Assembly: GCA_963803145.1 (NCBI GenBank)
Contig: CAWDLW010000017.1
Coordinates: 64,001 to 128,000, forward strand
Source: Methanotrichaceae archaeon
Lineage (GTDB): Archaea; Halobacteriota; Methanosarcinia; Methanotrichales; Methanotrichaceae
DNA: 64,000 nucleotides
Reading direction: 5' to 3'
In this document: piece after piece, positions 47,071 through 62,077 of the stretch
Layout: every line of letters starts with the position of its first letter
Numbering within the stretch: position 1 is the stretch's first letter
The notes under the pieces: generated by a model
Told to the model about the DNA's origin: nothing
Database searches by the model: none
What the model saw: only the letters and a program-made list of their open reading frames with translations
Made by a program: the position numbers and the translations under genes

Positions 47071-48432
47071 ATGTCTACCAGAGCCCAATTAGTGATATCG
47101 ATGGCTATTTTAGCGGTTTTTCTCGCTATCTCCACAGCCTATGCGGAGAATGCCGTCGATTCGGTGAATGGTGCGGCACGGTTAGCAAACCCGGCCATTG
47201 TGAAGGATGAGATCATAATCCCCATGGAGAACGGGACAATGATGGAGTGGCGGCATATTGTCCTCAAGGGAAACAACACTCAGATAGGCATGGCCCTTGG
47301 AGAGATCGCCCAGAAGGATTACGGAGCAACATCTCTAAAGAAATATGCCGATCCCATATATGGTAAAGCTCGCCAGGAGTATATGGCCAGGAACTATCCC
47401 ATCATGAGGGATAGGATGAAGGGTATTGCCATGTCATATGGCTTATCTCAGGACAATGCCACCTTCGATACCACCACATTACTTTACGATACCGGATCTT
47501 TAGGCTGCTCCATGGTATACTTCCCTCCGGAGACGATACTGAATGGCCATGCCATAGCCTCAAGAAATATGGAATGGTACTTGGTTCCCATGGATGTCTT
47601 CCTCGACAAGGCTGAGAAGGGGACAGGCAATGGTATGTTTACCAGGAACTTCTTAATAGAGATCTATCCCGACCATGGATATTCAACTATGGCTATTGCG
47701 GGCATGGAACTCAACTCGGTGATAGATGGGTTGAACTCCGAAGGTTTGGGTATATCCGCATTAGAAGACGAAGGGATGGAACCTGTCTTAGAGATGCCCA
47801 TGGCAGGGGATAGAAACAGCGGTATTATGAGCAGCCAGATAACCCGGCTTGTCCTTGAGACTTGTAGGACGGTGGAGGAGGCAAAGGTAGCTTTTCTGGC
47901 CAACAAGGAGTTCCTACCCATTTGTGGAATCCATTACATGGTCTACGATAGTCAGGGGAATTCGGCGATAGTAGAATGGAATAAATCTGATGGAAACCTG
48001 TACTTCACTGACGGCAACGGCAATAAGCCGAATATTATGACCAATCACCCAATGTACATATACTCCAAGTATGGTTTGGAGGACCTATCCGAAGAGAAGA
48101 ACCTGATCATGTATGATGATCCATACGATACCTTCAACCGCTACATAACACTGTATAACATCATCAGCAGCCACGAGGGCAAGTTTTCCGATGAGGATGC
48201 AGCCAATATCCTTAGTTCAGTCGAAGGCAACACAGTTATTCAGGCCGAAGGTGCCATGAAACCTCTTCCAATCAATACGATCTGGAATACCATCCTGGAT
48301 TTGACTGATAGAAGCATGAAAGTGAAATTCTTCCTTAAGAAAGGTCCTGTGGACAGAGCAACCAACAAGAGCACGTTGATCTTCACGCCGTACTTGACCT
48401 TCAAGATGAACAACTCAAGCATGCAACAGTGA
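47071..48432 (+). CDS. Secreted C45-family/Ntn hydrolase
   Basis: Signal peptide; GCS nucleophile, SRNME, DGLNSEGL, TNH. Confidence 0.8.
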   Translation: MSTRAQLVISMAILAVFLAISTAYAENAVDSVNGAARLANPAIVKDEIIIPMENGTMMEWRHIVLKGNNTQIGMALGEIAQKDYGATSLKKYADPIYGKARQEYMARNYPIMRDRMKGIAMSYGLSQDNATFDTTTLLYDTGSLGCSMVYFPPETILNGHAIASRNMEWYLVPMDVFLDKAEKGTGNGMFTRNFLIEIYPDHGYSTMAIAGMELNSVIDGLNSEGLGISALEDEGMEPVLEMPMAGDRNSGIMSSQITRLVLETCRTVEEAKVAFLANKEFLPICGIHYMVYDSQGNSAIVEWNKSDGNLYFTDGNGNKPNIMTNHPMYIYSKYGLEDLSEEKNLIMYDDPYDTFNRYITLYNIISSHEGKFSDEDAANILSSVEGNTVIQAEGAMKPLPINTIWNTILDLTDRSMKVKFFLKKGPVDRATNKSTLIFTPYLTFKMNNSSMQQ

Positions 48433-48788: not shown

Positions 48789-50012
48789 CTAATTGAGATG
48801 ATTCTGGAAGAGGGGATCCAGGTCCACCTCCGTCCAGTTCTGCACTCCTGGAATTCTGACCCAGATCTTCAGATCCTTCGGCACAGCCACCACCTGGTAG
48901 CTTGTGGGAAGCTCTTCCGTCTGGAGAGGTCCACCCTTGGATAGTGGACGGCTCATGATATCCATTACAACATTTGGCGTCAGGTTACCCTTGTGCATCT
49001 CAGCCAGGTATAGGAGACTCCTTCGCCGTACCTCGGTATGAATGGGATCGTTTATGCCGGGTACAGGCATCTCGAAGCCCCATTCGGGATTCTGGAAGTG
49101 ATTGGTTGAGACAAGAAGGCCGTCTTCATCAAGAGATCTCCTCTTCAGGTCAAAGGGAGTCCATTCGTAGGATCTGGCCGCACTTTTATCTGCCACATTC
49201 ACAATGCATCCATCCGATGGCCTGGTTGAGCGAATCCGCCCTTCGATCTCCTCCAGGTTGGCGGAGTCCTCAAGGAATGTGAGAAGGAGAACAGGAGTGG
49301 TCACAGTATTTATTGTGTAGATGCTTTCAGAAGTATCGCCGTTGGTCTCCAGGAAGATACCCCTCTGGTTCATGCCGGTATTCAAATAGATCGATCCTGC
49401 ATAATGGATGCTTGCTACAGGGATGCTCCCATCATCGGGATTCAATACCGTTACTACTATGTACTGGCGCATCTTATCGCTCCAGTCGTAGTTCCTCCCA
49501 AAGACCAGCGGCCCATAGGATGTGTAATTGCCCCAGGCCGCCAGTGCTGAACAGCCCTGAGCATGGATAAGGTAGATCTGCAGACAATTTATGATGAGGA
49601 GATCATCAAGTCCAAGACCTGAAGTCTCTGCCATTCCAAGAATTAATTCCTTATACCTCTGAGGATAAAGCTGGAAGGATCTGTTGCCATAAGCGAGGAG
49701 TCGGTCGCGGCTGATTGCCTCAGATTTTCCAAAGTCATGGCTCATGTTATCGTAGATCCTGAACAGATCATCTCTGAGAAGGTAGCCGTATTGCCTGCCC
49801 ATCTCTCTGTAGCTTCCGTGAAGCTCCAGCACCTTAAGGGAGCCAATCTGATGAAGAAGGCCGCCTTCAAAGGTTGTCACTGGGTGCGAAGAGATTGAGC
49901 TGTTTTCCTGATTTTCGGCCAGAGCTGGTGAGCAAAGCAGCAGAAGGGCAATGACCACTGCCGTCATCAGGCATGAAGATAGACATGTAAATATGGATCT
50001 CCTTAAGGTCAT
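48789..50012 (-). CDS. Secreted C45-family peptidase/acyltransferase
   Basis: Signal peptide; LHGSYREMGRQYG, GCS, GRNYDW, TGMN, STNHF. Confidence 0.85.
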   Translation of the reverse strand: MTLRRSIFTCLSSCLMTAVVIALLLLCSPALAENQENSSISSHPVTTFEGGLLHQIGSLKVLELHGSYREMGRQYGYLLRDDLFRIYDNMSHDFGKSEAISRDRLLAYGNRSFQLYPQRYKELILGMAETSGLGLDDLLIINCLQIYLIHAQGCSALAAWGNYTSYGPLVFGRNYDWSDKMRQYIVVTVLNPDDGSIPVASIHYAGSIYLNTGMNQRGIFLETNGDTSESIYTINTVTTPVLLLTFLEDSANLEEIEGRIRSTRPSDGCIVNVADKSAARSYEWTPFDLKRRSLDEDGLLVSTNHFQNPEWGFEMPVPGINDPIHTEVRRRSLLYLAEMHKGNLTPNVVMDIMSRPLSKGGPLQTEELPTSYQVVAVPKDLKIWVRIPGVQNWTEVDLDPLFQNHLN

Positions 50013-50130: not shown

Positions 50131-51150
50131 CTAGGAAGACTGCTGAGTACTACCAGCCATGTCATTTCCCGAATCGTCTGGGGTTGGATTGGGTATTGGC
50201 CCCGGCATGGGTCCTGGGGTCGGGTTAGGTACAGGTCCCGGCATGGGCCCCGGCACTCCTCGGCAGAGGCATTGGCCGTTTACATAATTACAGTTGGGGT
50301 TCGACTCGCATGCAGCTGCGGGATTAGGTACAGGTCCTGGTGGACATTGACATTGTCCATCTGCCCAAAAGCATCCTGGCTTCTTTTCGCATTCGGCTAC
50401 TGGATTGGGGGCAGTGCAAACGCATTCGCCCTTAGTGTCATCCCAGAAGCAGTTGGATTTTTTCTGACATTCCGCCTTTGGATCAGGGTTAGGCGGCGTT
50501 GGTTTAGATGTTGCTGAATATACATCTATAGTAACTGTGTTGCTGTTACCGCTGTTTGTAGTAAATACGTTGTAATGTCTTCCCTGCATATCGGCATAGT
50601 ACCACATTAGGTAGTAGCCAGGATTGAAAACTCCCAGATTATACTTAATAACAAATCGACCCGAGTAGACCTCATACATTGTCACGGGTGTCTTGACAGG
50701 CACGTATAAAAGCTCTCGAGCCCAGCTTCCCAAAGGCATAGTGGCATACCAGGTCCAGCCAGTGGCTCTTTCAATCCACATGCCTGCCGTATTGCTGGGG
50801 AATGTGGAAAGGAATCCATTCCACTGAATGGTGTTGCCCCTGTAGAAGATGGACGTCGGCGGGCTGGCCATGATATTGAATGCCGTCAATGTTCTTTGGC
50901 TTGATGCAGGTGGAGCTAAACTCGTGTAGCTGGCCGCATTCACCGGCTCGGTGGTCGCCATTTGCGGCGCGTCATCCGCAACAGGAGCATTTGTTATATC
51001 CTCTTGCAAACCCAAAGCAGCAAGATTATTTATACTCAAGTTATCGGCGCTATTAGCGCCAGTAGTTCCTGATTGGTCCAATCCCCCAAGAACAGGGATG
51101 GACAGGAGGAATATGCTCAATGCTATCCAAAATATGTATTTATTTTTCAT
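50131..51150 (-). CDS. Secreted protein with three C-terminal 4-Cys repeats and a PGPMPGPVPNPT tail
   Basis: Signal peptide; C-x5-C-x-(W/Y)-x2/4-G-x-C-x-C three times. Confidence 0.85.
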   Translation of the reverse strand: MKNKYIFWIALSIFLLSIPVLGGLDQSGTTGANSADNLSINNLAALGLQEDITNAPVADDAPQMATTEPVNAASYTSLAPPASSQRTLTAFNIMASPPTSIFYRGNTIQWNGFLSTFPSNTAGMWIERATGWTWYATMPLGSWARELLYVPVKTPVTMYEVYSGRFVIKYNLGVFNPGYYLMWYYADMQGRHYNVFTTNSGNSNTVTIDVYSATSKPTPPNPDPKAECQKKSNCFWDDTKGECVCTAPNPVAECEKKPGCFWADGQCQCPPGPVPNPAAACESNPNCNYVNGQCLCRGVPGPMPGPVPNPTPGPMPGPIPNPTPDDSGNDMAGSTQQSS

Positions 51151-51252: not shown

Positions 51253-52335
51253 TAGTTAATCCACGTAATTTTTACCTCATAGATACCCTTAAATAATTAA
51301 TATACGATATAGCCGTTCATGGGCAGGAAACCTGTAATTGTAAGACATATCTCGAAGGTAGAATTAGATCAATTGTATAAAGATGAGAGAAACATAAGAA
51401 TTAAAGAACGGCTACTAGCGATAATACATTTATACGAAGGAAAGAATGTATATATAGTAGCTGATATTCTTAAACGAAGTGAAAAGACAATAAAGAATTG
51501 GCTAAGCGATTGGAACAAACAAGGATATGATGGATTGATACCACAGAATAGAAACGGCAAAGAACCAATGATATCTTTTGATGAATGGGATAAAATTATC
51601 GAAGAGATTGAGGACAAAGGAATGACTATAAAAGAGGTAATAAAATATGCAAAAGACACAAGAGGCGTAGAATATTCGTATAAAGGTGGTTGGAAGATTT
51701 TAAGATCAATAAAGAAAGTCAAATATGGTAAACCATATATTAGAAATAATAAGAGGCCTGTTAATGCAGAAAGTTTTCTAAAAAAAGGATAGATTCAGTA
51801 ATAACAACAGTCAAAGAACCTATTATTGGATTCCTTGATGAAAGCTCTTTGCAACAGCGACCTAATACACGCAGGGTTTTAAACACCCATATGCTAAATT
51901 ATCAACCTGGAAAAGTTAGGTCTAGAACTGTTTTTGGGTTCATTGCATTGAATGGAAATGATGAAGTTATGGTCTCTCACTCATCCAAGAAAGAAGATTT
52001 AATGATCTTCGCCCAAAAATTGAGAAGTAACAATATTATGAGACCAATATGTATTGTCCTAGATAATGCTAGAATACATCTAGCTAAGAAGTTTAGGGCA
52101 TTAGCCCACGAACTTGATATCCATTTAATATATAACGTGCCATATTCCCCTGATTTAAATCCTATAGAGTTCGGTTGGAAGGATTTTAAAAGAGAGATAT
52201 CAAAATATACTGATTTTGATGAAGCTATTGAGGATGCCCAAGATTGCGCTTTACAAATATTTTATTCCAATAAAGATGGATACTCTAAGTCTTGGATAAA
52301 GCAGTTTATAAGGTAAAAAGTTGGGAGAATGACTA
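51253..52335 (+). mobile_element. IS630-family insertion sequence, copy 2 (1083 bp)
   Basis: Ends TAGTTAATC / GAATGACTA with TA duplication; same length as and homologous to 18812-19894. Confidence 0.9.
51319..52316 (+). CDS. IS630 transposase (ORF A 51319-51792 plus ORF B in the -1 frame)
   Basis: A7G run at 51780-51787; FLDESS, LDNARIH, PYSPDLNPIE. Confidence 0.88.
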
Positions 52336-52635: not shown

Positions 52636-53742
52636 TCACTTGCCTTGACTCTGCGGGCAGGCGTTTATTATAAAGATATTGATTGTAGCACCTGAAGTGC
52701 GATTCATCTGTGTGTAGTTTAGTATTCTATCCAGATATTTTAGGGCAGTATCTCCCTCAGGCATCGTTTCATTTACAACGACTGCAGTTCCTGCATTGGA
52801 TGGAGCTATGGCAGGCTTTGATGGCGCCGATGGAGCCGCGGCAGGCTCGGGTGTTGCAGTGATATTGACATTGCTAATATCCAGACCCGGCTCAGCCTTT
52901 TTAAGGGCTTCTACGAATGCTGGTTTTTCAGTATATCCTGACAGCGTCTGATTTAGGCTTCCATTCTTGAAGATAAAGAACACCGGGAAGAATGTGATAT
53001 TGTATTTTGTGGCAGTCTCGTTGTTCTTCAAAGCATTTATAAGACCGAAGGCAACCTGGCCTTTAAGCTCATTTGATAGCTCGAGAATAGTTGCGTTATT
53101 CGCCTTGCAGTAGCCGCACCAATCGGCAAAACCCATCAGTACGAACAGGGGATACTTCTTCACTGCGAACGTGAGAGTGCTGTCATTTACTTTCATAGGC
53201 ATAGCAGGTTTATCCGCCCCGAGGTCGATCAGAGGTATATCTCCCTGATTTGCAGCGGGCGCTGGAGGAGTAATCCCCAGCTGGGCGACTATCTCAACGC
53301 GGCTCGTGTTCAGCCCTGGCCTAAATGTCTTGAGCGTATCTACAAGATCTGACTCATTGCTGTATCCTAACCGAGTATCGATGAGAGTACCATTTTTGAA
53401 TATCAGAAGCGTTGGTAAGTCAGTGATGTTATATCTCTTGACAATCTTGCTGTTATTTCCGACATCGATCACCCCGAAGGCCATCTGGCCGTTTAGCTCG
53501 CTTGAGAGCAGATTGAATGCAGCGTTCATTTCTTTGCATGGCGGGCACCAAGGAGCGTAGCAATCAAGAGCAAAAAATTGGTATTTGCTTATTGTGCTGT
53601 TGACAAGGCTGTCATTTAGTTCAAGGGCCAATCCCTGAGAGCTATTTGAACTTGATTGCTGACCCGCCGCTGAGGTGATGATTGGGCTAAATGCCGCTAG
53701 TAAAACTAACAGAAGGTATAAGATTATTCGTCTGTTATGCAT
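52636..53742 (-). CDS. Secreted tandem thioredoxin-domain protein (PDI-like architecture)
   Basis: Signal peptide; two Trx domains with WCPPC and WCGYC. Confidence 0.88.
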   Translation of the reverse strand: MHNRRIILYLLLVLLAAFSPIITSAAGQQSSSNSSQGLALELNDSLVNSTISKYQFFALDCYAPWCPPCKEMNAAFNLLSSELNGQMAFGVIDVGNNSKIVKRYNITDLPTLLIFKNGTLIDTRLGYSNESDLVDTLKTFRPGLNTSRVEIVAQLGITPPAPAANQGDIPLIDLGADKPAMPMKVNDSTLTFAVKKYPLFVLMGFADWCGYCKANNATILELSNELKGQVAFGLINALKNNETATKYNITFFPVFFIFKNGSLNQTLSGYTEKPAFVEALKKAEPGLDISNVNITATPEPAAAPSAPSKPAIAPSNAGTAVVVNETMPEGDTALKYLDRILNYTQMNRTSGATINIFIINACPQSQGK

Positions 53743-54902: not shown

Positions 54903-54956
54903 CTAAGGTTTGATGGAGAGCATCAACAGAAATCCATTAACTGCTTTAATTATCAT
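54903..54956 (-). pseudogene. Leader-only relic of the Cys-scaffold family
   Basis: MIIKAVNGFLLMLSIKP* versus MIVKAAIGFLLLMLFIVP; preceded by the family promoter. Confidence 0.65.
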
Positions 54957-54998
54957 GATTCTTTGTTCCCTCCAAAGACTGGCTTGTAAATGTTAGCA

Positions 54999-55019
54999 TA
55001 AATAGTTATTCATTATGGT
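54999..55019 (-). promoter_or_regulatory. Family BRE/TATA-like promoter motif, copy 1
   Basis: TAAATAGTTATTCATTAT(G/A)GT, conserved in four copies. Confidence 0.65.
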
Positions 55020-55183: not shown

Positions 55184-55582
55184 ATGGAGAATGAGAAGAG
55201 AATTGCAGCGGTTTTTACTGCTCTTCTGGCGCTGACATGCCTTGTATTGCCTGCTATGGGATATTCAATATCCGGACTAGTTTACAGTGACATAAATAAA
55301 AATGGAGTCATGGATCGAAATGAGAACGGTCTTGCCAATATAACCGTAAGTCTGGGAGGGCCTGTGCTCTGCCTCAACGACAAAGGATTGTTTGTGGAGC
55401 CGAATGTCTACAGTCTGAACATGACAACCAACAAAACAGGCATCTTCAATTTCACGGTTGATAAATTTGGGCGGTACTTCCTTAAGGCGATCGACGGAGA
55501 TACGATTCTAGTTAAGCCGTCAGCTATAGATATCGCACATCCTAATGATATAATAAACCTTAACCTCACAGAAATAAAATAA
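55184..55582 (+). CDS. Secreted SdrD-B/Cna-B-like domain protein
   Basis: Signal peptide; SISGLVYSDINKNGVMDRNENGLANITV, TTNKTGIFNF. Confidence 0.8.
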   Translation: MENEKRIAAVFTALLALTCLVLPAMGYSISGLVYSDINKNGVMDRNENGLANITVSLGGPVLCLNDKGLFVEPNVYSLNMTTNKTGIFNFTVDKFGRYFLKAIDGDTILVKPSAIDIAHPNDIINLNLTEIK

Positions 55583-55679: not shown

Positions 55680-56114
55680 TCAACTGGCAATGTAGAATGC
55701 ATTAGGTTGTTGCTGCGAATCGTCTAGATTGTATACGACTCCGGAGTTGTAATTGTATGCTTCGCCTAGATCAAATTCAGAAGTATACCATCCTAACGGC
55801 GCATTTATAGGTACATCCCAGATTGAGCATACCCAGTCAGATGTTTCCCCAGGTTGAAGGTATACCGGCCTTGCATCGCCATAATACCAGTTGCCGTATG
55901 GGTCTTCTACGGATAGCTGAACCCAGAAAGTACATGGCACATATCCTGTATTAGTGATCTTGGCGCAATTGCCGCCAATGCCGTTTTGTCTATACCAATC
56001 GCCGCTAGCGAACTGGTAATCAGTGATCTTTGCATCTGTCGTATCTGATGCGGCCAGAGCTATTGGAACCCCAACAAAGGAGATCAACAATAACCCGCAT
56101 ATTATCTGTTTCAT
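55680..56114 (-). CDS. Secreted Ig-like hypothetical protein
   Basis: GGAGGGTG RBS, signal peptide MKQIICG; ITNTG...LQPGET..W.VP.NAP.GWY. Confidence 0.75.
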   Translation of the reverse strand: MKQIICGLLLISFVGVPIALAASDTTDAKITDYQFASGDWYRQNGIGGNCAKITNTGYVPCTFWVQLSVEDPYGNWYYGDARPVYLQPGETSDWVCSIWDVPINAPLGWYTSEFDLGEAYNYNSGVVYNLDDSQQQPNAFYIAS

Positions 56115-56502
56115 CAAATTCACACCCTCCATGCGATATTTATTTGGGCTGTTATTGCAGACCTTTCTATTAAGTTCTTTCGGAACTATTGAAAAATTAT
56201 AGCGAACTTATAAAAAACGAGGGATGCTATGGGCCTAAAATACAAATGGCGAAATTATCATTGGAATACTACGATCCCTCTTCATTTAAGCCCTAAATCG
56301 CGTCCGGCATTGCAATTCTCAAAACTAACTGGTTATTCGCTTATCAGTTTTCTATAAATTTTATTAACCTTGAAAAAATATCATAGGACTATTAGGGGAA
56401 GAGGAGGCCAGGGCAGAGCCTCCCTAGCCATTCCTGGCCACTCTCATCGTCCCAGTTAGCAGGCACTCGCCATCGGCCCAGCGTTAGTCAGGGTTCTTCT
56501 CG

Positions 56503-57135
56503 CTATCCATTTGGTGTTGGATTGGGTACTGGCCCTGGCATGGGTTCAGTTGGATTCGGCACCGGTTCCGGCATAATCTCTTCAGGCTCAGGCATAACGC
56601 ATATGCACCGACCATCTCTCCATGCACAGTTGGGATCTTTCTCGCACTCTATCTGCTCAGGGTTCGTCATAGCGCATAGGCATTCACCATTGACCCAGTG
56701 GCATTTAGGGTTGGCCTCGCAGTCAGCCGTGAGGTTTTGAACAGGTGCAGCTCCGGAGTTGGAGGATTTCACATCGCAATGATAGCCAGGAAGAAATATA
56801 AATCGGCATGTCGGACCCTTATGCTCATCCCATGGGCATGATTCTGGAAGATAAGCATCGCATATAAATTCTTCATACGGATCAGACACGCAACTGTTAG
56901 GAATATTTATCACTGGATAACAAGGCCCGTGTAAAAGTTTTGGTAATTTTTCCCCGGTTGATATTCTATAGCAATATCCGTTCCAAGTAGCACAACTCAT
57001 ATCCTGATTCGCAGATAGGTTATCGCTCCCAGTCGCCACATTATTCTGATTTATTTCCGGCTGTGCCAGTGTCGGCACGATGAAGAGCATCAGCAACAGA
57101 AATCCAATAGCCGCTTTCACTATCATATTTTTCAT
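56503..57135 (-). CDS. Secreted Cys-scaffold protein A
   Basis: Signal peptide, 8-Cys variable core, constant two 4-Cys repeats and Pro tail. Start may be 57126. Confidence 0.88.
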   Translation of the reverse strand: MKNMIVKAAIGFLLLMLFIVPTLAQPEINQNNVATGSDNLSANQDMSCATWNGYCYRISTGEKLPKLLHGPCYPVINIPNSCVSDPYEEFICDAYLPESCPWDEHKGPTCRFIFLPGYHCDVKSSNSGAAPVQNLTADCEANPKCHWVNGECLCAMTNPEQIECEKDPNCAWRDGRCICVMPEPEEIMPEPVPNPTEPMPGPVPNPTPNG

Positions 57136-57184
57136 CCCTCCAAAGCCTTGGAAATATTTGCTTAAAACTGGTTCATAACCTACT

Positions 57185-57205
57185 TAAATAGTTATTCATT
57201 ATGGT
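57185..57205 (-). promoter_or_regulatory. Family promoter motif, copy 2
   Basis: TAAATAGTTATTCATTATGGT; reads GAATAACTATTTAAG on the minus strand. Confidence 0.65.
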
Positions 57206-57520
57206 ATAAAATTTCGCCAATACACTTTTATCCCGACATATATATCTCCCAATATAGCAAAATCCAATGATGCAAATGTTGCATCCTTAATGCTCACCCT
57301 CGATGCCTCCGATGCCATCTTCGGGAGCCCGAACTTGATGGGGATATATGCTTAGACTGTTATTTCCAGGAGGCCAGGGCGGAGCCTTCGGAGATTTCTC
57401 GAAACTAACGACTCATGGCCGAAGGATGAAGAGAAGCGAGCTTAGGCGGCGCATTAGAATAAGGCTTCATGAGCTTAATTCTATCAAAAAATGAGATGAA
57501 ATGTGCAGCCTGATCTCTTG

Positions 57521-58135
57521 CTATCCATTTGGTGTTGGATTGGGTACAGGCCCTGGCATAGGTTCAGGTGTTGGATTGGGTACAGGTCCCGGCATTGGCT
57601 CCACAGGCTCAGGCATAACGCAGATGCACCGGCCATCTCTCCATGCACAATTGGGATCTTTCTCGCACTCTATCTGCTCAGGACTTTGCATGATACATAG
57701 GCATTCACCATTAACCCAGTGGCAATTAGGGTTGGCCTCGCAGTCAGCCGTGAGATTTTGAACCGGTGCAGCTTCAGGACCGGGTTCATGCCATTTGCAC
57801 GGTTTCGTGAATTGTAATTTGCATTCGCAGCGCAATCCACCCTCGTGGCAAGGGCATGGCCTAGGGAAATCCTCGTTACAAGTAGTGCCCCCATTGCCAA
57901 ATTGGATAGGCAAGCATTCTCCAGCCCAAATTTTCAACTCACAATGCCCTTGTGTAGTACCGGACCAACCAGTATACCAGTTATGGCACACACCAGTCCA
58001 AGTGCCTTCACAGCCTGTTGGTGGGTTCACGTTATTGCTTCCAGTCGCCGTAATATTCTGATCTACATTCTGTGCCAGTGCTGGCATAATGAAGATCGCC
58101 AGCAGCAGCAATCCAATAGCCGCTCTCACTATCAT
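57521..58135 (-). CDS. Secreted Cys-scaffold protein B
   Basis: Same architecture; 10-Cys core. Confidence 0.88.
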   Translation of the reverse strand: MIVRAAIGLLLLAIFIMPALAQNVDQNITATGSNNVNPPTGCEGTWTGVCHNWYTGWSGTTQGHCELKIWAGECLPIQFGNGGTTCNEDFPRPCPCHEGGLRCECKLQFTKPCKWHEPGPEAAPVQNLTADCEANPNCHWVNGECLCIMQSPEQIECEKDPNCAWRDGRCICVMPEPVEPMPGPVPNPTPEPMPGPVPNPTPNG

Positions 58136-58192
58136 GTTTTTTCATCCCTCTCACGCCTTGAAATATTTGCTTAAAGACGGTAAACGCCTATA

Positions 58193-58213
58193 TAAATAGT
58201 TATTCATTATAGT
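58193..58213 (-). promoter_or_regulatory. Family promoter motif, copy 3
   Basis: TAAATAGTTATTCATTATAGT; reads GAATAACTATTTATATA on the minus strand. Confidence 0.65.
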
Positions 58214-58456
58214 TTAAAATCTTGCCAATACATTTTTATCCCGACGTATATATCCAAATATAGCAAAATCTAATGATGCAAATGTATCCTAAATGCTCAC
58301 CCTCTCCGCCTCCGATGCCATCTCCGGGAGCTCGAACTGGATGGAGATATATGCTTAGACTGTTATTTCGAGGTGGCCAGGGCCTTCCTGGCCGCTCTCA
58401 TCGTCCCAGTTCGTAGGCACTCGCCATCAGCCCAATGGCAGTCAGGGTTCTTCTCG

Positions 58457-59026
58457 CTATCCATTTGGAGTTGGATTCGGTACAGGCCCAGGCATGGGTT
58501 CAGTTGGATTGGGCACCGGCCCAGACATGATCTCTTCAGGTTCTGGCATAACGCAGATACACCGGCCATCTCTCCAGGCACAGAGAGGATCTTTCTCGCA
58601 CTCTATCTGCTCGGGACTTTGCATGACACATAGGCATTTACCATTGACCCAGTGGCAGTTAGGGTTAGCCTCGCAGTCAGCCGTGAGATTTTCAACCGGC
58701 TCGGCCTCGGAATTCCAGATCCAGTGGCAATAACCGTACGGTTTATATTTGAAAGTACATTTTTGACCATTATCGCATTTCAAGCTAGTATAACGGGCAC
58801 ATACTTGGCTCATATCTTCTTTGGGCTCACATGTCCCCCAAGACAACCCACAAGATCCACCTAATGTTTGGCTCGCTCCATATTGATCATAGCAGATTCC
58901 ACTCCAACCTGAACACTCCATTGGCGCGGAAATACTGCTTCCAGCCGCCGCATTATTCGTTATTTGTGCCAGTGCCGGCGCTATGAAGAGCACTAGCAGC
59001 AATCCAATAGCCGCTTTACATATCAT
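58457..59026 (-). CDS. Secreted Cys-scaffold protein C
   Basis: Same architecture; 8-Cys core. Confidence 0.88.
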   Translation of the reverse strand: MICKAAIGLLLVLFIAPALAQITNNAAAGSSISAPMECSGWSGICYDQYGASQTLGGSCGLSWGTCEPKEDMSQVCARYTSLKCDNGQKCTFKYKPYGYCHWIWNSEAEPVENLTADCEANPNCHWVNGKCLCVMQSPEQIECEKDPLCAWRDGRCICVMPEPEEIMSGPVPNPTEPMPGPVPNPTPNG

Positions 59027-59083
59027 AGTTCTGTCATTCCTCCGACTCGGAAATATTTACAATGTGACGATTCAGTATCGACA

Positions 59084-59104
59084 TAAATAGTTATTCATTA
59101 TAGT
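59084..59104 (-). promoter_or_regulatory. Family promoter motif, copy 4
   Basis: TAAATAGTTATTCATTATAGT upstream of gene C. Confidence 0.65.
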
Positions 59105-59274
59105 TTAATATTTTTCAGTTTCAAAAAAAAGAGCTTGAAGGTGCAGCTTCATACCTTCCAGACCAATTTGTATTTTAGTGTTTCGATCAAAATGATTTTG
59201 AAGTTATCCAAGTCGCTACAGATGGCTCTAAATATCAAGAATTGATAATGTAGATTTCAAGAAAAGGAGGCCAG

Positions 59275-59673
59275 ATGATGAATGGATATTTGATTCTGTT
59301 GTTGGTCGCAGCCCTCTCCTCAATAGGGTTAGTTTCAGCAAATAGCATATGCGATAATGCTCCGTGCGAAAAACCAATAAATGCCAGCATCGGAGAGGAT
59401 TTTAGTATAACTATAGGATCCAATCCAGGATCGACAGGCTCTGACTGGTGGACAAATTTTGATACCCAATACATAAGCCTGGCAAATTCGACCTTCGTTC
59501 CCGGAAATGCGCCTTCTGGAATGGAGGGTGTACCCGGAAAGAGAATTTTCACCTTCAATGCCAAAAGAGCTGGCAATACTGAAGTGATCATGCTCCTGCT
59601 TCAGCCCTGGGTTAACGGCACTATCGCAGAGGAAAAAATCTTTCCTGTAAGCATCAAAGCTGCTGTAAAATAG
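59275..59673 (+). CDS. Chagasin-like cysteine protease inhibitor (I42)
   Basis: Signal peptide; SNPGSTG..W, G.PGKRIFTF, QPW loop. Confidence 0.85.
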   Translation: MMNGYLILLLVAALSSIGLVSANSICDNAPCEKPINASIGEDFSITIGSNPGSTGSDWWTNFDTQYISLANSTFVPGNAPSGMEGVPGKRIFTFNAKRAGNTEVIMLLLQPWVNGTIAEEKIFPVSIKAAVK

Positions 59674-59809: not shown

Positions 59810-62077
59810 TTGGAGTTGCTAATCATGTTGAGCTGTATGCCTAGAAGAGCCTTTATCATCCTGCTTTGGGCTATGTTAATTGTATCGATAATTCCTGTCT
59901 TGGCCGAACTTAATCTTACCAATTCGACTCAAAATAGTCCTATTTCGCAATTGGCAATCGATAATGAATCCGTCCAAGTATCAATGCTAAAGCTGCCATT
60001 AAGCTTCATAGAGAACCTTGGTCAGTCCTCTAACGATGTAAAATTCATGATCAAGACCTCCGGGAAGACTATATTCTTTACTCCTTCCGACATTGTATTT
60101 GCGTTATCCGGCGGCAACAATTCGTCTGTGGTCCATATGGAATTTGAGGGCTCTAAATCATGTCAGATAATAGGCGAAGGGCAGCTTCCTGGCACAGCCA
60201 ACTTCTTCATCGGAAATGATTCGTCCAAGTGGGTAACCGAGATACCTACCTATAGCGCAGTCAGATACAAAGATTTCTATCCTGGAGTCGATCTGGTCTT
60301 CAAAGGCACGGAAGGAAGCCTGAAGCATGAGCTGCTGCTGAAGCCCGGCGCGGACCCGGCCAAAATCGTTATGGCTTACAGCGGCCAGGATAACCTGAGC
60401 CTCGACAAGAATGGATCGATCCTGATCAAGACTATTGCAGGCAACCTCACAGACTCTGCGCCCTTCTGCTACCAGGACATCGATGGGAGCAGGGTGATTG
60501 TCGAGGGGAAATATCGAAGAATTGATACCAATAAGATAGGGTTTGAGATCAAAGAATATAATCAGAGCCTTCCTCTTGTGATAGATCCCTTGCTGAGATA
60601 TTCTACCTATCTAGGTGGTAAGGGTTATGATGAAGGCAATGGCATAGCTGTAGACTGCAGCGGCAACGCCTATGTTACAGGACGGACGAAGTCGACTGAC
60701 TTCCCGACAAAAAATGCATACCAGGCCGCGAACGCAGGGTTTGAAGACGCTTTTGTCATCAAGCTGAGCCCCGCGGGGAATAAACTTGTCTACTCCACTT
60801 ATCTGGGAGGTAGCGGTCCCGACAGCGGCAATGGCATAGCCATAGATAGCAGAGGTAACGCCTATGTTACAGGAAGGACCGATTCGACTGACTTTCCGAC
60901 AAAAAATGCATACCAGGCTGCGAACGCAGGGTTCGCCGACGCTTTTGTCATCAAGTTGAGCCCTGCGGGGAATAAACTTGTCTACTCCACTTATCTGGGA
61001 GGTAGCCGAAATGATTTTGCAAATGGCATAGCTATAGGCCCGGGCTCCAGCGGTAACGCTTATGTTACAGGGCGGACGAAGTCGACTGACTTCCCGACAC
61101 AGAACCCATACCAGGTCGCGAATGCAGGAAACAACGACACTTTTGTCACAAAGTTAAGTCCCGCAGGGAATAGACTCATATATTCCACTTATATGGGAGG
61201 CAGCAAAAACGAGAGCGGCAGTGGCGTAGCTGTAGATCGCATCGGTAACGCTTATGTTACAGGATTCACGGATTCGGATAACTTTCCGACCAAAAACCCA
61301 TACCAGGCCACGAAGGCAAAATGCTCCGACGCTTTTATCACAAAGCTGAACCCTGCAGGGAATAAACTGGTCTATTCCACTTACCTAGGCGGCAACAGCT
61401 GCGATATTGGCTATGGCATAGCCGTAGACAGCAGCGGTGACGTATATATTGCAGGGATCACACCTTCGACCGACTTTCCGACCAAAAACCCATATCAGGC
61501 TGTAAACGCGGGAGGTGGCGACGTTTTTGCAGCCAAGCTTAATCCTGCAGGGAATAAACTTGTCTACTCAACTTATCTGGGTGGTAGCGGTGAAGACTGG
61601 GGCAAAGGCATATCTGTAGACAGCAGAGGTAACGCTTATGTTACAGGATGGACGTATTCGACCAATTTCCCAACCAAGAATGCATACCAGGCCGCAAATG
61701 CAGGAGTACATGACGCTTTCATAGCCGTCTTTACAAAAGCGCCTCCAAATACGCCATCCATGCCTTCAGGACCTGTTTCAGGTAAGATAAGAACACTCTA
61801 CAGGTATACGACATCAGCCATAGATCCCGAGGGAGGCCAAATTAAATATACCTTCAACTGGGGAGACGGAACAACATCGACAACACGTCTGGTCGACTCT
61901 GGAACAGAGGCATTTGCATATCATAGATGGACAAAAGAGGGAACATTCCAGGTTAAGGCCATGGCTACAGATAGCAAAGGTGCGACCTCGGAATATTCAA
62001 GTGCATTGGGTGTTAGAATAGGTTATGTCCGATTGTGCGTACGCCTCTTGAAGGAAGCCAGCCATAGCATCATTTGA
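59810..62077 (+). CDS. Secreted SBBP beta-propeller repeat protein with PKD-like C-terminus
   Basis: FIENLGQ N-terminal domain, six YSTY(L/M)GG repeats of about 62 aa, YTFNWGDGT. Start may be 59825 or 59837. Confidence 0.9.
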   Translation: MELLIMLSCMPRRAFIILLWAMLIVSIIPVLAELNLTNSTQNSPISQLAIDNESVQVSMLKLPLSFIENLGQSSNDVKFMIKTSGKTIFFTPSDIVFALSGGNNSSVVHMEFEGSKSCQIIGEGQLPGTANFFIGNDSSKWVTEIPTYSAVRYKDFYPGVDLVFKGTEGSLKHELLLKPGADPAKIVMAYSGQDNLSLDKNGSILIKTIAGNLTDSAPFCYQDIDGSRVIVEGKYRRIDTNKIGFEIKEYNQSLPLVIDPLLRYSTYLGGKGYDEGNGIAVDCSGNAYVTGRTKSTDFPTKNAYQAANAGFEDAFVIKLSPAGNKLVYSTYLGGSGPDSGNGIAIDSRGNAYVTGRTDSTDFPTKNAYQAANAGFADAFVIKLSPAGNKLVYSTYLGGSRNDFANGIAIGPGSSGNAYVTGRTKSTDFPTQNPYQVANAGNNDTFVTKLSPAGNRLIYSTYMGGSKNESGSGVAVDRIGNAYVTGFTDSDNFPTKNPYQATKAKCSDAFITKLNPAGNKLVYSTYLGGNSCDIGYGIAVDSSGDVYIAGITPSTDFPTKNPYQAVNAGGGDVFAAKLNPAGNKLVYSTYLGGSGEDWGKGISVDSRGNAYVTGWTYSTNFPTKNAYQAANAGVHDAFIAVFTKAPPNTPSMPSGPVSGKIRTLYRYTTSAIDPEGGQIKYTFNWGDGTTSTTRLVDSGTEAFAYHRWTKEGTFQVKAMATDSKGATSEYSSALGVRIGYVRLCVRLLKEASHSII
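60598..61730 (+). repeat. About 186-bp tandem repeats encoding SBBP units
   Basis: AACGC(C/T)TATGTTACAGG and GGGAATAAACT(T/G)GTCTA recur at about 186-bp spacing. Confidence 0.85.

Follow-up and report, generated by a model that had tools for sequence, protein, structure and literature searches.

What kind of protein family is encoded by three neighbouring genes whose products begin and end almost alike and share so little in between? The question is raised by g1, g2 and g3, a tandem array in a 64,000-nucleotide stretch of DNA from a Methanotrichaceae archaeon (the window; G000:C17:64001-128000, on contig CAWDLW010000017.1 of assembly GCA_963803145.1), the source genome of which comprises 4.13 Mb in 51 contigs and is 99.3% complete. 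A sequence-only reading had inferred diversifying selection on hypervariable cores and had thought of a polymorphic adhesin, of kin or partner recognition, of a virus decoy or of an antimicrobial system. The reading that we favour, and hold to be somewhat probable, is that g1-g3 are a tandem family, young and restricted to its lineage, of exported proteins that are acidic, rich in disulfides and built as a head on a stalk, and that the paralogs have diverged with this stalk conserved. It looks like a very small family that arose by ordinary duplication and divergence, not by a running hypervariation mechanism.

Three tandem genes with constant ends and divergent cores

All three genes lie on the minus strand and encode precursors of 210 (g1, 56503..57135), 204 (g2, 57521..58135) and 189 (g3, 58457..59026) amino acids (aa). 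Each precursor consists of a signal peptide (57061-57135, 58070-58135 and 58964-59026, respectively), an N-linker, a cysteine (Cys)-rich core (56752-57000, 57773-58018 and 58706-58921) and a constant end (56506-56751, 57524-57772 and 58460-58705). In the protein alignment a common hydrophobic signal peptide, judged by eye, with a cleavage-type A-L/x-A-Q end is followed by a short Asn/Ser/Thr-rich linker, a divergent middle in which only the Cys residues, one Trp and a few Gly and Pro residues are invariant, and about 82 nearly identical C-terminal residues. The cores contain 8, 10 and 8 Cys, the two extra Cys of g2 being a pair, and each constant end contains 8; the signal peptide of g3 has one Cys more. 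The products look exported by means of a Sec-type signal peptide, and the mature proteins (168-185 aa) have a computed isoelectric point (pI) of 4.4-4.65 and a net charge of -10 to -15, with a pI of 5.4-5.7 for the cores alone.

At the DNA level the genes are a mosaic. The upstream regions of g1 and g2 are identical at 0.87 of positions between -250 and -111 and at 0.83 between -110 and -1, while upstream pairs involving g3 reach 0.65, the likeness of g3 to the other two being confined to ~110 nt that include an invariant block of ~30 nt. Identity among the three genes is 0.81-0.85 in the signal peptide, 0.54-0.58 in the N-linker and core (0.55 in shuffled controls) and 0.85-0.88 in the constant end. 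The 3' flanks of g1 and g3 are identical at 0.73, and g2 has an unrelated one. The passage from core to constant end is sharp: in 30-column windows the identity steps from ~0.4 to ~0.93 at ~56750, 57770 and 58705. The mosaic of constant ends and divergent cores is thus real and far above chance, and the descriptive claims of the sequence-only reading, namely a shared signal peptide and near-identical C-terminus (85-88% in the constant-end DNA), an always even number of core Cys, and non-coding flanks better conserved than the cores, agree with the alignments, counts and segment identities, with the reservation that for g3 the upstream likeness is limited as said above.

The invariant upstream block, which contains a TATA-like element, is part of a conserved promoter block that each gene has for itself, at 57172..57214 (g1), 58180..58222 (g2) and 59071..59113 (g3), all on the minus strand; a ribosome-binding site of the GGAGG type comes before each of the three genes as well. 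A 19-nt core of this block is found, with up to 2 mismatches, at 6 sites in the 4.13-Mb genome, 4 of them at the g1-g3 locus. Two near-matches outside the locus are unrelated, one lying upstream of a transposase-like open reading frame (ORF) and the other adjoining no gene. The fourth site at the locus belongs to a relic of a further family copy (54903..55017, minus strand), in which the promoter block (54999-55017) precedes a 17-codon signal-peptide remnant ending in a stop (54903-54956); it sits upstream of an unrelated gene for a 321-aa secreted protein.

The constant end is a stalk of 4-Cys modules

The constant end is built from a mini-module of 16 residues with 4 Cys, C-E-x-N-P-x-C-x-W-x-N/D-G-x-C-x-C, which is present twice. 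A conserved N-L-T sequon stands before the two copies, and proline linkers of the PMPGPVPNP type join and tail them. The modules occupy 56599..56721 in g1 (56674-56721 and 56599-56646), 57620..57742 in g2 (57695-57742 and 57620-57667) and 58553..58675 in g3 (58628-58675 and 58553-58600), all on the minus strand. A hidden Markov model (HMM) of the repeat, trained on 56 unique repeats none of which came from g1-g3, scored them at 36.1 and 33.9 bits (g1), 40.7 and 34.0 bits (g2) and 42.5 and 34.9 bits (g3). Altogether the module was collected 80 times in 31 proteins, and 74 of the 80 repeats keep the spacing C-x5-C-x6-C-x-C; a His beside the second Cys is not conserved among them. In models it takes the form of a short helix and then a beta-hairpin, with a predicted local distance difference test (pLDDT) value of 65-88 in a single-sequence AlphaFold2 (AF2) model of g2 and of 72-82 in the AlphaFold model, built with an alignment, of a relative.

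Behind the stop codons of g1 and g3 the stalk once went on. A third 4-Cys module, out of frame and deprived of its first and last Cys, lies just past the stop of g3 (58411..58470, minus strand), and its homologous counterpart behind g1, together with the 3' flank (56431..56505, minus strand), contains a stop; no such sequence is present behind g2. Since these decayed modules follow the present stop codons, the ancestor was presumably longer, like P0004, a metagenomic relative described below.

The module matches no Pfam or NCBIfam family in scans of g1-g3 and of P0032, another protein of the window that contains it. Within the same family, 15 of 24 genomes have it, as against none of 16 genomes from other families of the class, and a phylum-wide sample gave 8 of 12 same-family genomes versus 1 of 388 others. 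Where the sources of module proteins are named, they are Methanothrix or Methanotrichaceae. The stalk module is therefore uncatalogued and, in the genomes searched, nearly confined to Methanotrichaceae.

Its usual setting is the C-terminal part of secreted proteins of 300-450 aa with a conserved N-terminal region of ~200 aa, which is modelled as an immunoglobulin (Ig)-like beta-sandwich. The motif of this region, W-I-E-R ... Y-Y-x-W-Y-Y-A-D-x-x-G-R-H, is absent from g1-g3 and from P0004. Fold searches with an Ig-head relative returned generic Ig/PKD/PapD-like matches only (best Foldseek E 1.3e-3, best Z 5.8), the stalk modules being barely probed. P0032 (339 aa, 50131-51150, minus strand), 5 kb from the array, is such an Ig-head module protein. 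Another member is encoded elsewhere in the genome (G000:C27:58406-59071), and the two carry 3-5 modules each; across the Ig-head relatives the number of modules goes from 2 to 7, with evident recent repeat duplications in P0033.

Several other matches fall at the edge of the module's range. An isolated, intact-looking module in the same-family genome G002 (contig C2, L031 ~1990-2110) has stop codons upstream in frame and is probably a gene remnant; a partial match over part of the core on that contig was rejected as a relative, being an isolated decayed stalk module among stop codons. P0066, P0071, P0075, P0077 and P0078 are long surface proteins, and the source of P0066 is named as a Dehalococcoidia bacterium. 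P0066, the one of the five whose sequence was examined, ends in tandem stalk-type proline linkers with no 4-Cys module; matches of this kind from outside the Methanotrichaceae share the proline linker alone.

The Cys-rich head

The core preceding the stalk, which we call the head, has 72-83 aa and keeps a frame of Cys, Gly and Trp only. The likeness from core to core is weak, with 25-43% identity and BLASTP single-comparison E values of 0.019, 4e-4 and 0.004. A profile of four cores (those of g1-g3 and P0004) matched 2 of 1,835,955,588 representatives, and these were P0004 and the window's own cluster. P0004 is a metagenomic protein of 254 aa on a contig of 1453 nt; its 8-Cys head has similar spacing and 29-33% identity to the heads of g1-g3, and its stalk has five modules, one of them degenerate, with the terminal module kept, unlike the decayed one behind g1 and g3. 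There are thus four cores in all in the public data searched.

Pfam and NCBIfam scans of g1-g3 gave nothing above chance (the rows at E <=1 are at chance level), ESM Atlas gave no usable match for the family, and the anti-phage models of PADLOC matched in none of the 7 proteins scanned. Scans with the alignment pattern found 24 stretches in genome contigs and 234 in metagenome contigs, none of which is a relative. The head is not a row of degenerate stalk modules either, as the repeat HMM scored no better on it than on shuffles (114, 209, 19 and 74 of 300 reached the observed score). In the single-sequence AF2 model of g2 the head has a pLDDT <40, and a fold search with this model gave no match at Z >=5, its rows being aligned mainly to the low-confidence head and hence meaningless.

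The Cys-rich head appears to be an orphan, known only in this cluster and P0004. We found no description of the module or the family in full-text literature searches, nor in passages of PMC11576556 and PMC11224092, and the supplementary tables of the former might list some members. No known family or enzyme domain was matched in Pfam, NCBIfam or the 1.84-billion-representative profile search, in keeping with the remark of the sequence-only reading that it did not recognise a described archaeal system. A catalogue of constant ends and cores, as that reading had proposed, has 80 repeats in 31 proteins for the module and four entries for the cores.

Selection keeps the Cys scaffold of the cores

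In the constant end the synonymous distance (dS) is 0.46-0.72 and the nonsynonymous distance (dN) 0.054-0.065, giving a dN/dS of about 0.1, which points to long purifying selection on the stalk and not to very recent copying. The cores have a dN of 0.68-0.84, that is 0.9-1.7 times the constant-end dS, and a proportion of synonymous differences (pS) of 0.72-0.84, at which synonymous sites are saturated; together with the uncertain loop alignment this leaves no usable dN/dS for the core proper. The contrast between core and ends proposed in the sequence-only reading is found in sliding-window identity and in dN.

Differences in core length are all in frame. In neutral simulations with the per-lineage distance (d = 0.23-0.36) taken from the constant end, the reading frame stayed open in 3-9% of runs, and an open frame with all Cys kept was reached with P <=0.001 whichever of the 9 settings was used. 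Hence it is selection that maintains the Cys scaffold of the cores, and they are not decaying. The loops may be free or positively selected, two cases that three sequences and an uncertain loop alignment do not separate. As approximately neutral change at the constant-end dS leads to core identity of random level, there is no need to assume that the heads predate the ends.

The copies have no single simple history, given that g1 and g2 differ by 0.13-0.2 in the upstream region and signal peptide, compared with 0.46 for the dS of their constant ends. Where a residue is conserved, all three genes use the same codon in 41 of 63 columns of the constant end and in only 3 of 12 columns of the core. 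This contrast and the uneven divergence of g1 and g2 make some gene conversion or recombination among the copies likely.

The array in related strains

Strain comparison was made on short assembly contigs. Runs X1, X3 and X4 represent one sediment sample with a relative at about 90-95% identity; the 151-nt pieces in run X2 are near-identical, and as this run may be the source sample it is not independent. One related-strain contig has the g3 core with 2 changes in 328 bases (99.4% identity); 14 letters of other sequence link it there to a signal-peptide region closer to that of g2 (9 differences in 62; joint 58958>58073). A second contig spans the g3 core, signal peptide and upstream region. 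Over 670 bases it shows 38 differences and, in addition, 15 gap letters, and the insertions listed for its coding sequence add up to multiples of three and fall outside the Cys core. For the constant ends in this sample the counts are 15 differences in 234 bases and 20 in 226. At ortholog level the g3 head is accordingly at least as conserved as the stalk, which speaks against current hypervariability. The cores of g1 and g2 had no cover in the sample at >=85% identity.

The array of the related strain is also rearranged. The downstream flank of g1 is joined directly to a g3-like constant end (56465>58427, in two runs), and in two contigs a g1-type 3' flank comes after an intergenic region (57381>56416 and 58371>56403). 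These joints show recombination between alike segments. A test for gene conversion, in which 15 of 26 related-strain variants matched the paralog base, does not discriminate, since about as many matches are expected from simple divergence along the branch of the reference.

Two known ways of generating variants were looked for in the 99.3%-complete genome. The reverse transcriptase model PF00078 had 0 matches, with the control genomes detected, and blastn and tblastn searches with the three cores found no second copy of any core, only the expressed ones. Retroelement-driven variation and switching from silent cassettes are therefore not supported. The claim of a polymorphic, hypervariable system finds no support and is partly contradicted, given the near-identical g3 core, the four cores in public data and the failure to find silent copies or a reverse transcriptase. 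What survives of the proposed diversifying selection is a diversification of loops between paralogs, seen in the core dN and the simulation; of ongoing hypervariation there is no sign. The sequence-only reading had itself named conservation of the cores across strains as an argument against it; the g3 core goes in that direction, and for those of g1 and g2 the sample offers no cover. For the paralogs, loop diversification on a constrained Cys scaffold is a fair description.

Gene neighbourhood and a secreted thioredoxin

The array lies in a part of the window rich in secreted and surface proteins. Upstream of it are genes for a chagasin-family (I42) peptidase inhibitor with a signal peptide (59275-59673, plus strand) and, adjoining this, for a 755-aa SBBP beta-propeller/DUF7948/PKD surface protein (59810-62077, plus strand). 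On the other side, a 150-aa secreted protein is encoded directly downstream of g1 (55680-56132, minus strand), followed by an SdrD-B-like protein (55184-55582). In both same-genus genomes the 150-aa gene is kept at 88-96% protein identity, and homology to the window ends at ~56130-56190; the array is therefore not at the syntenic place in these two genomes.

A paralog of the 150-aa protein with 41% identity is found in G002 (L050, G002:C1:1053136-1056552), directly downstream of the ortholog of P0032, so that the 150-aa protein and an Ig-head module gene may be a recurrent pair. In the window P0032 has beside it two AAT/choloylglycine-hydrolase-like proteins of the N-terminal nucleophile (Ntn) hydrolase type (47071-48432, plus strand; 48789-50012, minus strand), and the 407-aa one of them likewise adjoins its ortholog at L050.

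About 3 kb from the array a 368-aa secreted two-domain thioredoxin is encoded (52636-53742, minus strand), with CPPC and CGYC motifs, a signal peptide and many N-x-S/T sequons, which looks like a secreted oxidoreductase of the protein disulfide isomerase (PDI) kind. A second copy with 68% identity is on contig C20. Between the thioredoxin gene and that of P0032 there is an IS630-like element of two ORFs (HTH_23 and related, then DDE_3; 51319-52316, plus strand). A general adjacency or co-occurrence of thioredoxin and module protein was considered and rejected, as it was seen in the window and in G012 only, the latter having a fragment beside a module gene. According to PMC11576556, the sheath hoops of these archaea are disulfide-linked and thiol-exchange proteins occur in sheathed lineages, which makes extracellular disulfides credible in this anaerobe.

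Origin and possible function of the array

We propose that an ancestor with at least three stalk modules would have acquired the Cys-rich head and would then have lost its last module through frameshift and decay. Tandem duplication would have followed (synonymous distance 0.5-0.7). Since then purifying selection (dN/dS about 0.1) would have preserved the signal peptide and stalk, and the copies would be reshuffled between strains through homologous recombination in their alike segments. The head loops would change at or above the neutral rate, with selection keeping the frame and every Cys pair, a process that could lead to paralogs with different specificities. The stalk could serve as a rigid, protease-resistant spacer or fasten the protein to the sheath or envelope, and each of the three heads may have a ligand of its own. 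We suggest, with modest confidence, that the proteins are extracellular, disulfide-stabilised binding proteins at the sheath or envelope; this is the weakest step.

Several points weigh against this proposal. The proteins of g1-g3 are known here from their genes alone, their C-termini have no transmembrane or sortase-type localisation signal, and attachment to the envelope is a guess. Disulfide formation, which we infer, would have to occur in an organism of reducing habitats, and the full-length thioredoxin is found in 6 other same-family genomes (G001, G002, G005, G011, G015 and G019) versus the 15 with the module. The head of g2 is modelled at the low confidence given above, the excess of constant-end dS over the 5' divergence of g1 and g2 does not suit a simple series of duplications, and the related-strain evidence consists of short contigs of one sample, possibly from different genomes, and covers the listed differences only.

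Ongoing diversifying selection on a polymorphic recognition domain, with heads that are hypervariable between strains and serve as adhesins, in kin or partner recognition or as virus decoys, and constant ends that act as handles for head swapping, would explain a core dN of 0.9-1.7 times the constant-end dS on a kept Cys frame, the joint 58958>58073 that pairs a g3 core with a g2-like signal-peptide region, the position of the other joints in constant segments, the relic of a promoter and signal-peptide module at a fourth place, and the failure of the g1 and g2 cores to appear at >=85% identity in the related-strain sample. We consider it unlikely, since one contig has the g3 core at 99.4% identity and another has it no more divergent than the constant end, only four cores occur among 1.84 billion representatives, the genome and metagenome pattern scans brought no relative, and no silent cassettes were found in the genome. 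A bolder form, distinctly unlikely in our estimate, would have the heads as exchangeable recognition cassettes, with the promoter/signal-peptide module and the stalk as recombination handles by which strains swap, lose and re-pair heads; the g3 head with its g2-like signal-peptide region, the rearranged arrays and the fourth-site relic would be its traces. If true, it would mean that the binding of the filament changes (to a syntrophic partner, a mineral or a virus), and it would be the first archaeal surface-variation system on a lineage-specific extracellular disulfide module. Concerted evolution alone turns the argument round: the heads would be very old, and the ends and flanks alike through gene conversion and unequal crossing-over. 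It draws on the 5' divergence of g1 and g2 (0.13-0.2 against a dS of 0.46), the 3' flanks, alike in g1 and g3 and unrelated in g2, the identical codons in 3 of 12 core columns as opposed to 41 of 63 in the constant end, and the rearranged arrays of the related strain. A constant-end dS of 0.46-0.72 with a dN/dS of about 0.1 speaks of long purifying selection and not of recent homogenisation, and random-level core identity is reached at an approximately neutral rate at that same dS, so a greater age of the heads is unneeded; we regard this account as decidedly unlikely.

The remaining alternatives concern what the Cys residues do. Cys4 zinc sites have two paired CxxC-type knuckles, and the C-x5-C-x6-C-x-C spacing of the module has none. 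We find it improbable that the stalk quartets and head Cys are thiolate ligands for the capture of Zn, Fe, Ni, Co or Cu or for surface electron transfer. Four invariant Cys in 16 residues, acidic proteins and a strictly anaerobic, reducing habitat that includes sediment metagenomes would suit such a role; the knuckle-free spacing, the non-conserved His beside the second Cys, the always even Cys number with two Cys gained together in g2, the nearby secreted PDI-like thioredoxin and the disulfide-linked sheath hoops reported in PMC11576556 would not. Secreted antimicrobial or antagonistic peptides of the defensin or conotoxin type seem highly improbable in spite of the constant signal region, the variable Cys-framework region, the small size and the tandem arrangement. 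The mature proteins (pI 4.4-4.65, net charge -10 to -15) and the cores (pI 5.4-5.7) are acidic, no gene for immunity, a processing protease or a dedicated exporter was found among the 15 neighbouring ORFs scanned, PADLOC had 0 matches for 7 of 7 proteins, and the variable part stands at the N-terminal side, before a conserved stalk of 82 aa, an order not known from toxin precursors.

If g1-g3 are indeed a small family of head-on-stalk proteins, the locus is of interest beyond its size. Methanothrix-type archaea are major methane producers that live as sheathed filaments in aggregates, and to our knowledge their surface-contact proteins are largely unknown. The locus brings out an uncatalogued 4-Cys module, an orphan Cys-knot head diversified after tandem duplication and a nearby secreted PDI-like double thioredoxin, which together suggest that surface proteins are stabilised by disulfides in a strict anaerobe. 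It is also a clean, small example of scaffold-constrained divergence between constant ends, a lead rather than a discovery.

Comparison with known systems

Gene families of conotoxins and defensins combine a conserved signal region and a Cys framework with fast-changing loops. The likeness of g1-g3 to them is one of working principle only: a conserved 5' region and signal peptide, tandem paralogs, an even Cys frame, and loops whose rate of change equals or exceeds the neutral one. The differences are that g1-g3 are acidic and not cationic, have a large conserved stalk, number 3-4 members, and include a head, that of g3, which is stable between strains. No sequence or fold relationship was found and there is no evidence of proteolytic maturation, so that the comparison with defensin/conotoxin-type scaffolds holds for the architecture (conserved signal, Cys frame, variable loops).

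The PSI (plexin-semaphorin-integrin) and EGF-like modules of eukaryotic surface proteins and the modules of a cysteine-rich eggshell membrane protein (PDB 9pgb) are likewise tiny, serial, extracellular Cys-knotted stalks, with a different spacing and number of Cys. A PDB sequence search gave nothing significant (9pgb, E = 0.66; the PSI region of semaphorin-7A, E = 1.9), Pfam PSI or EGF models had no match at E <=1 for g1-g3, and an integrin PSI/I-EGF segment at Foldseek rank 9 (probability 0.33) is not significant, the search having been dominated by other parts of the model.

The sheath (SH) proteins of Methanothrix and Methanospirillum are, according to PMC11576556, secreted proteins of the same organisms with diverse 'cap' domains and disulfide-linked hoops, and they are defined there by an amyloid-like core of two six-stranded sheets. 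An SH-type domain is not evident in g1-g3 as compared through Pfam and NCBIfam only, the heads having no usable model.

The closest counterparts are the Ig-head proteins of the Methanotrichaceae (P0032 and P0005-P0079, with 3-7 modules), which have the signal peptide, the identical module, the proline linkers and the taxonomic range in common with g1-g3. This family has no Pfam or NCBIfam model (by the P0032 scan; the precomputed Pfam annotations of its relatives are empty). Its members have a beta-sandwich head of ~200 aa and an acidic, Gly-rich tail, whereas g1-g3 have a Cys-rich head of 72-83 aa, two modules and no such tail. P0004 has the same Cys-rich head and the same module as g1-g3, with five modules in place of two. 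g1-g3 and P0004 appear to be a separate architecture, which has the stalk alone in common with the Ig-head proteins.

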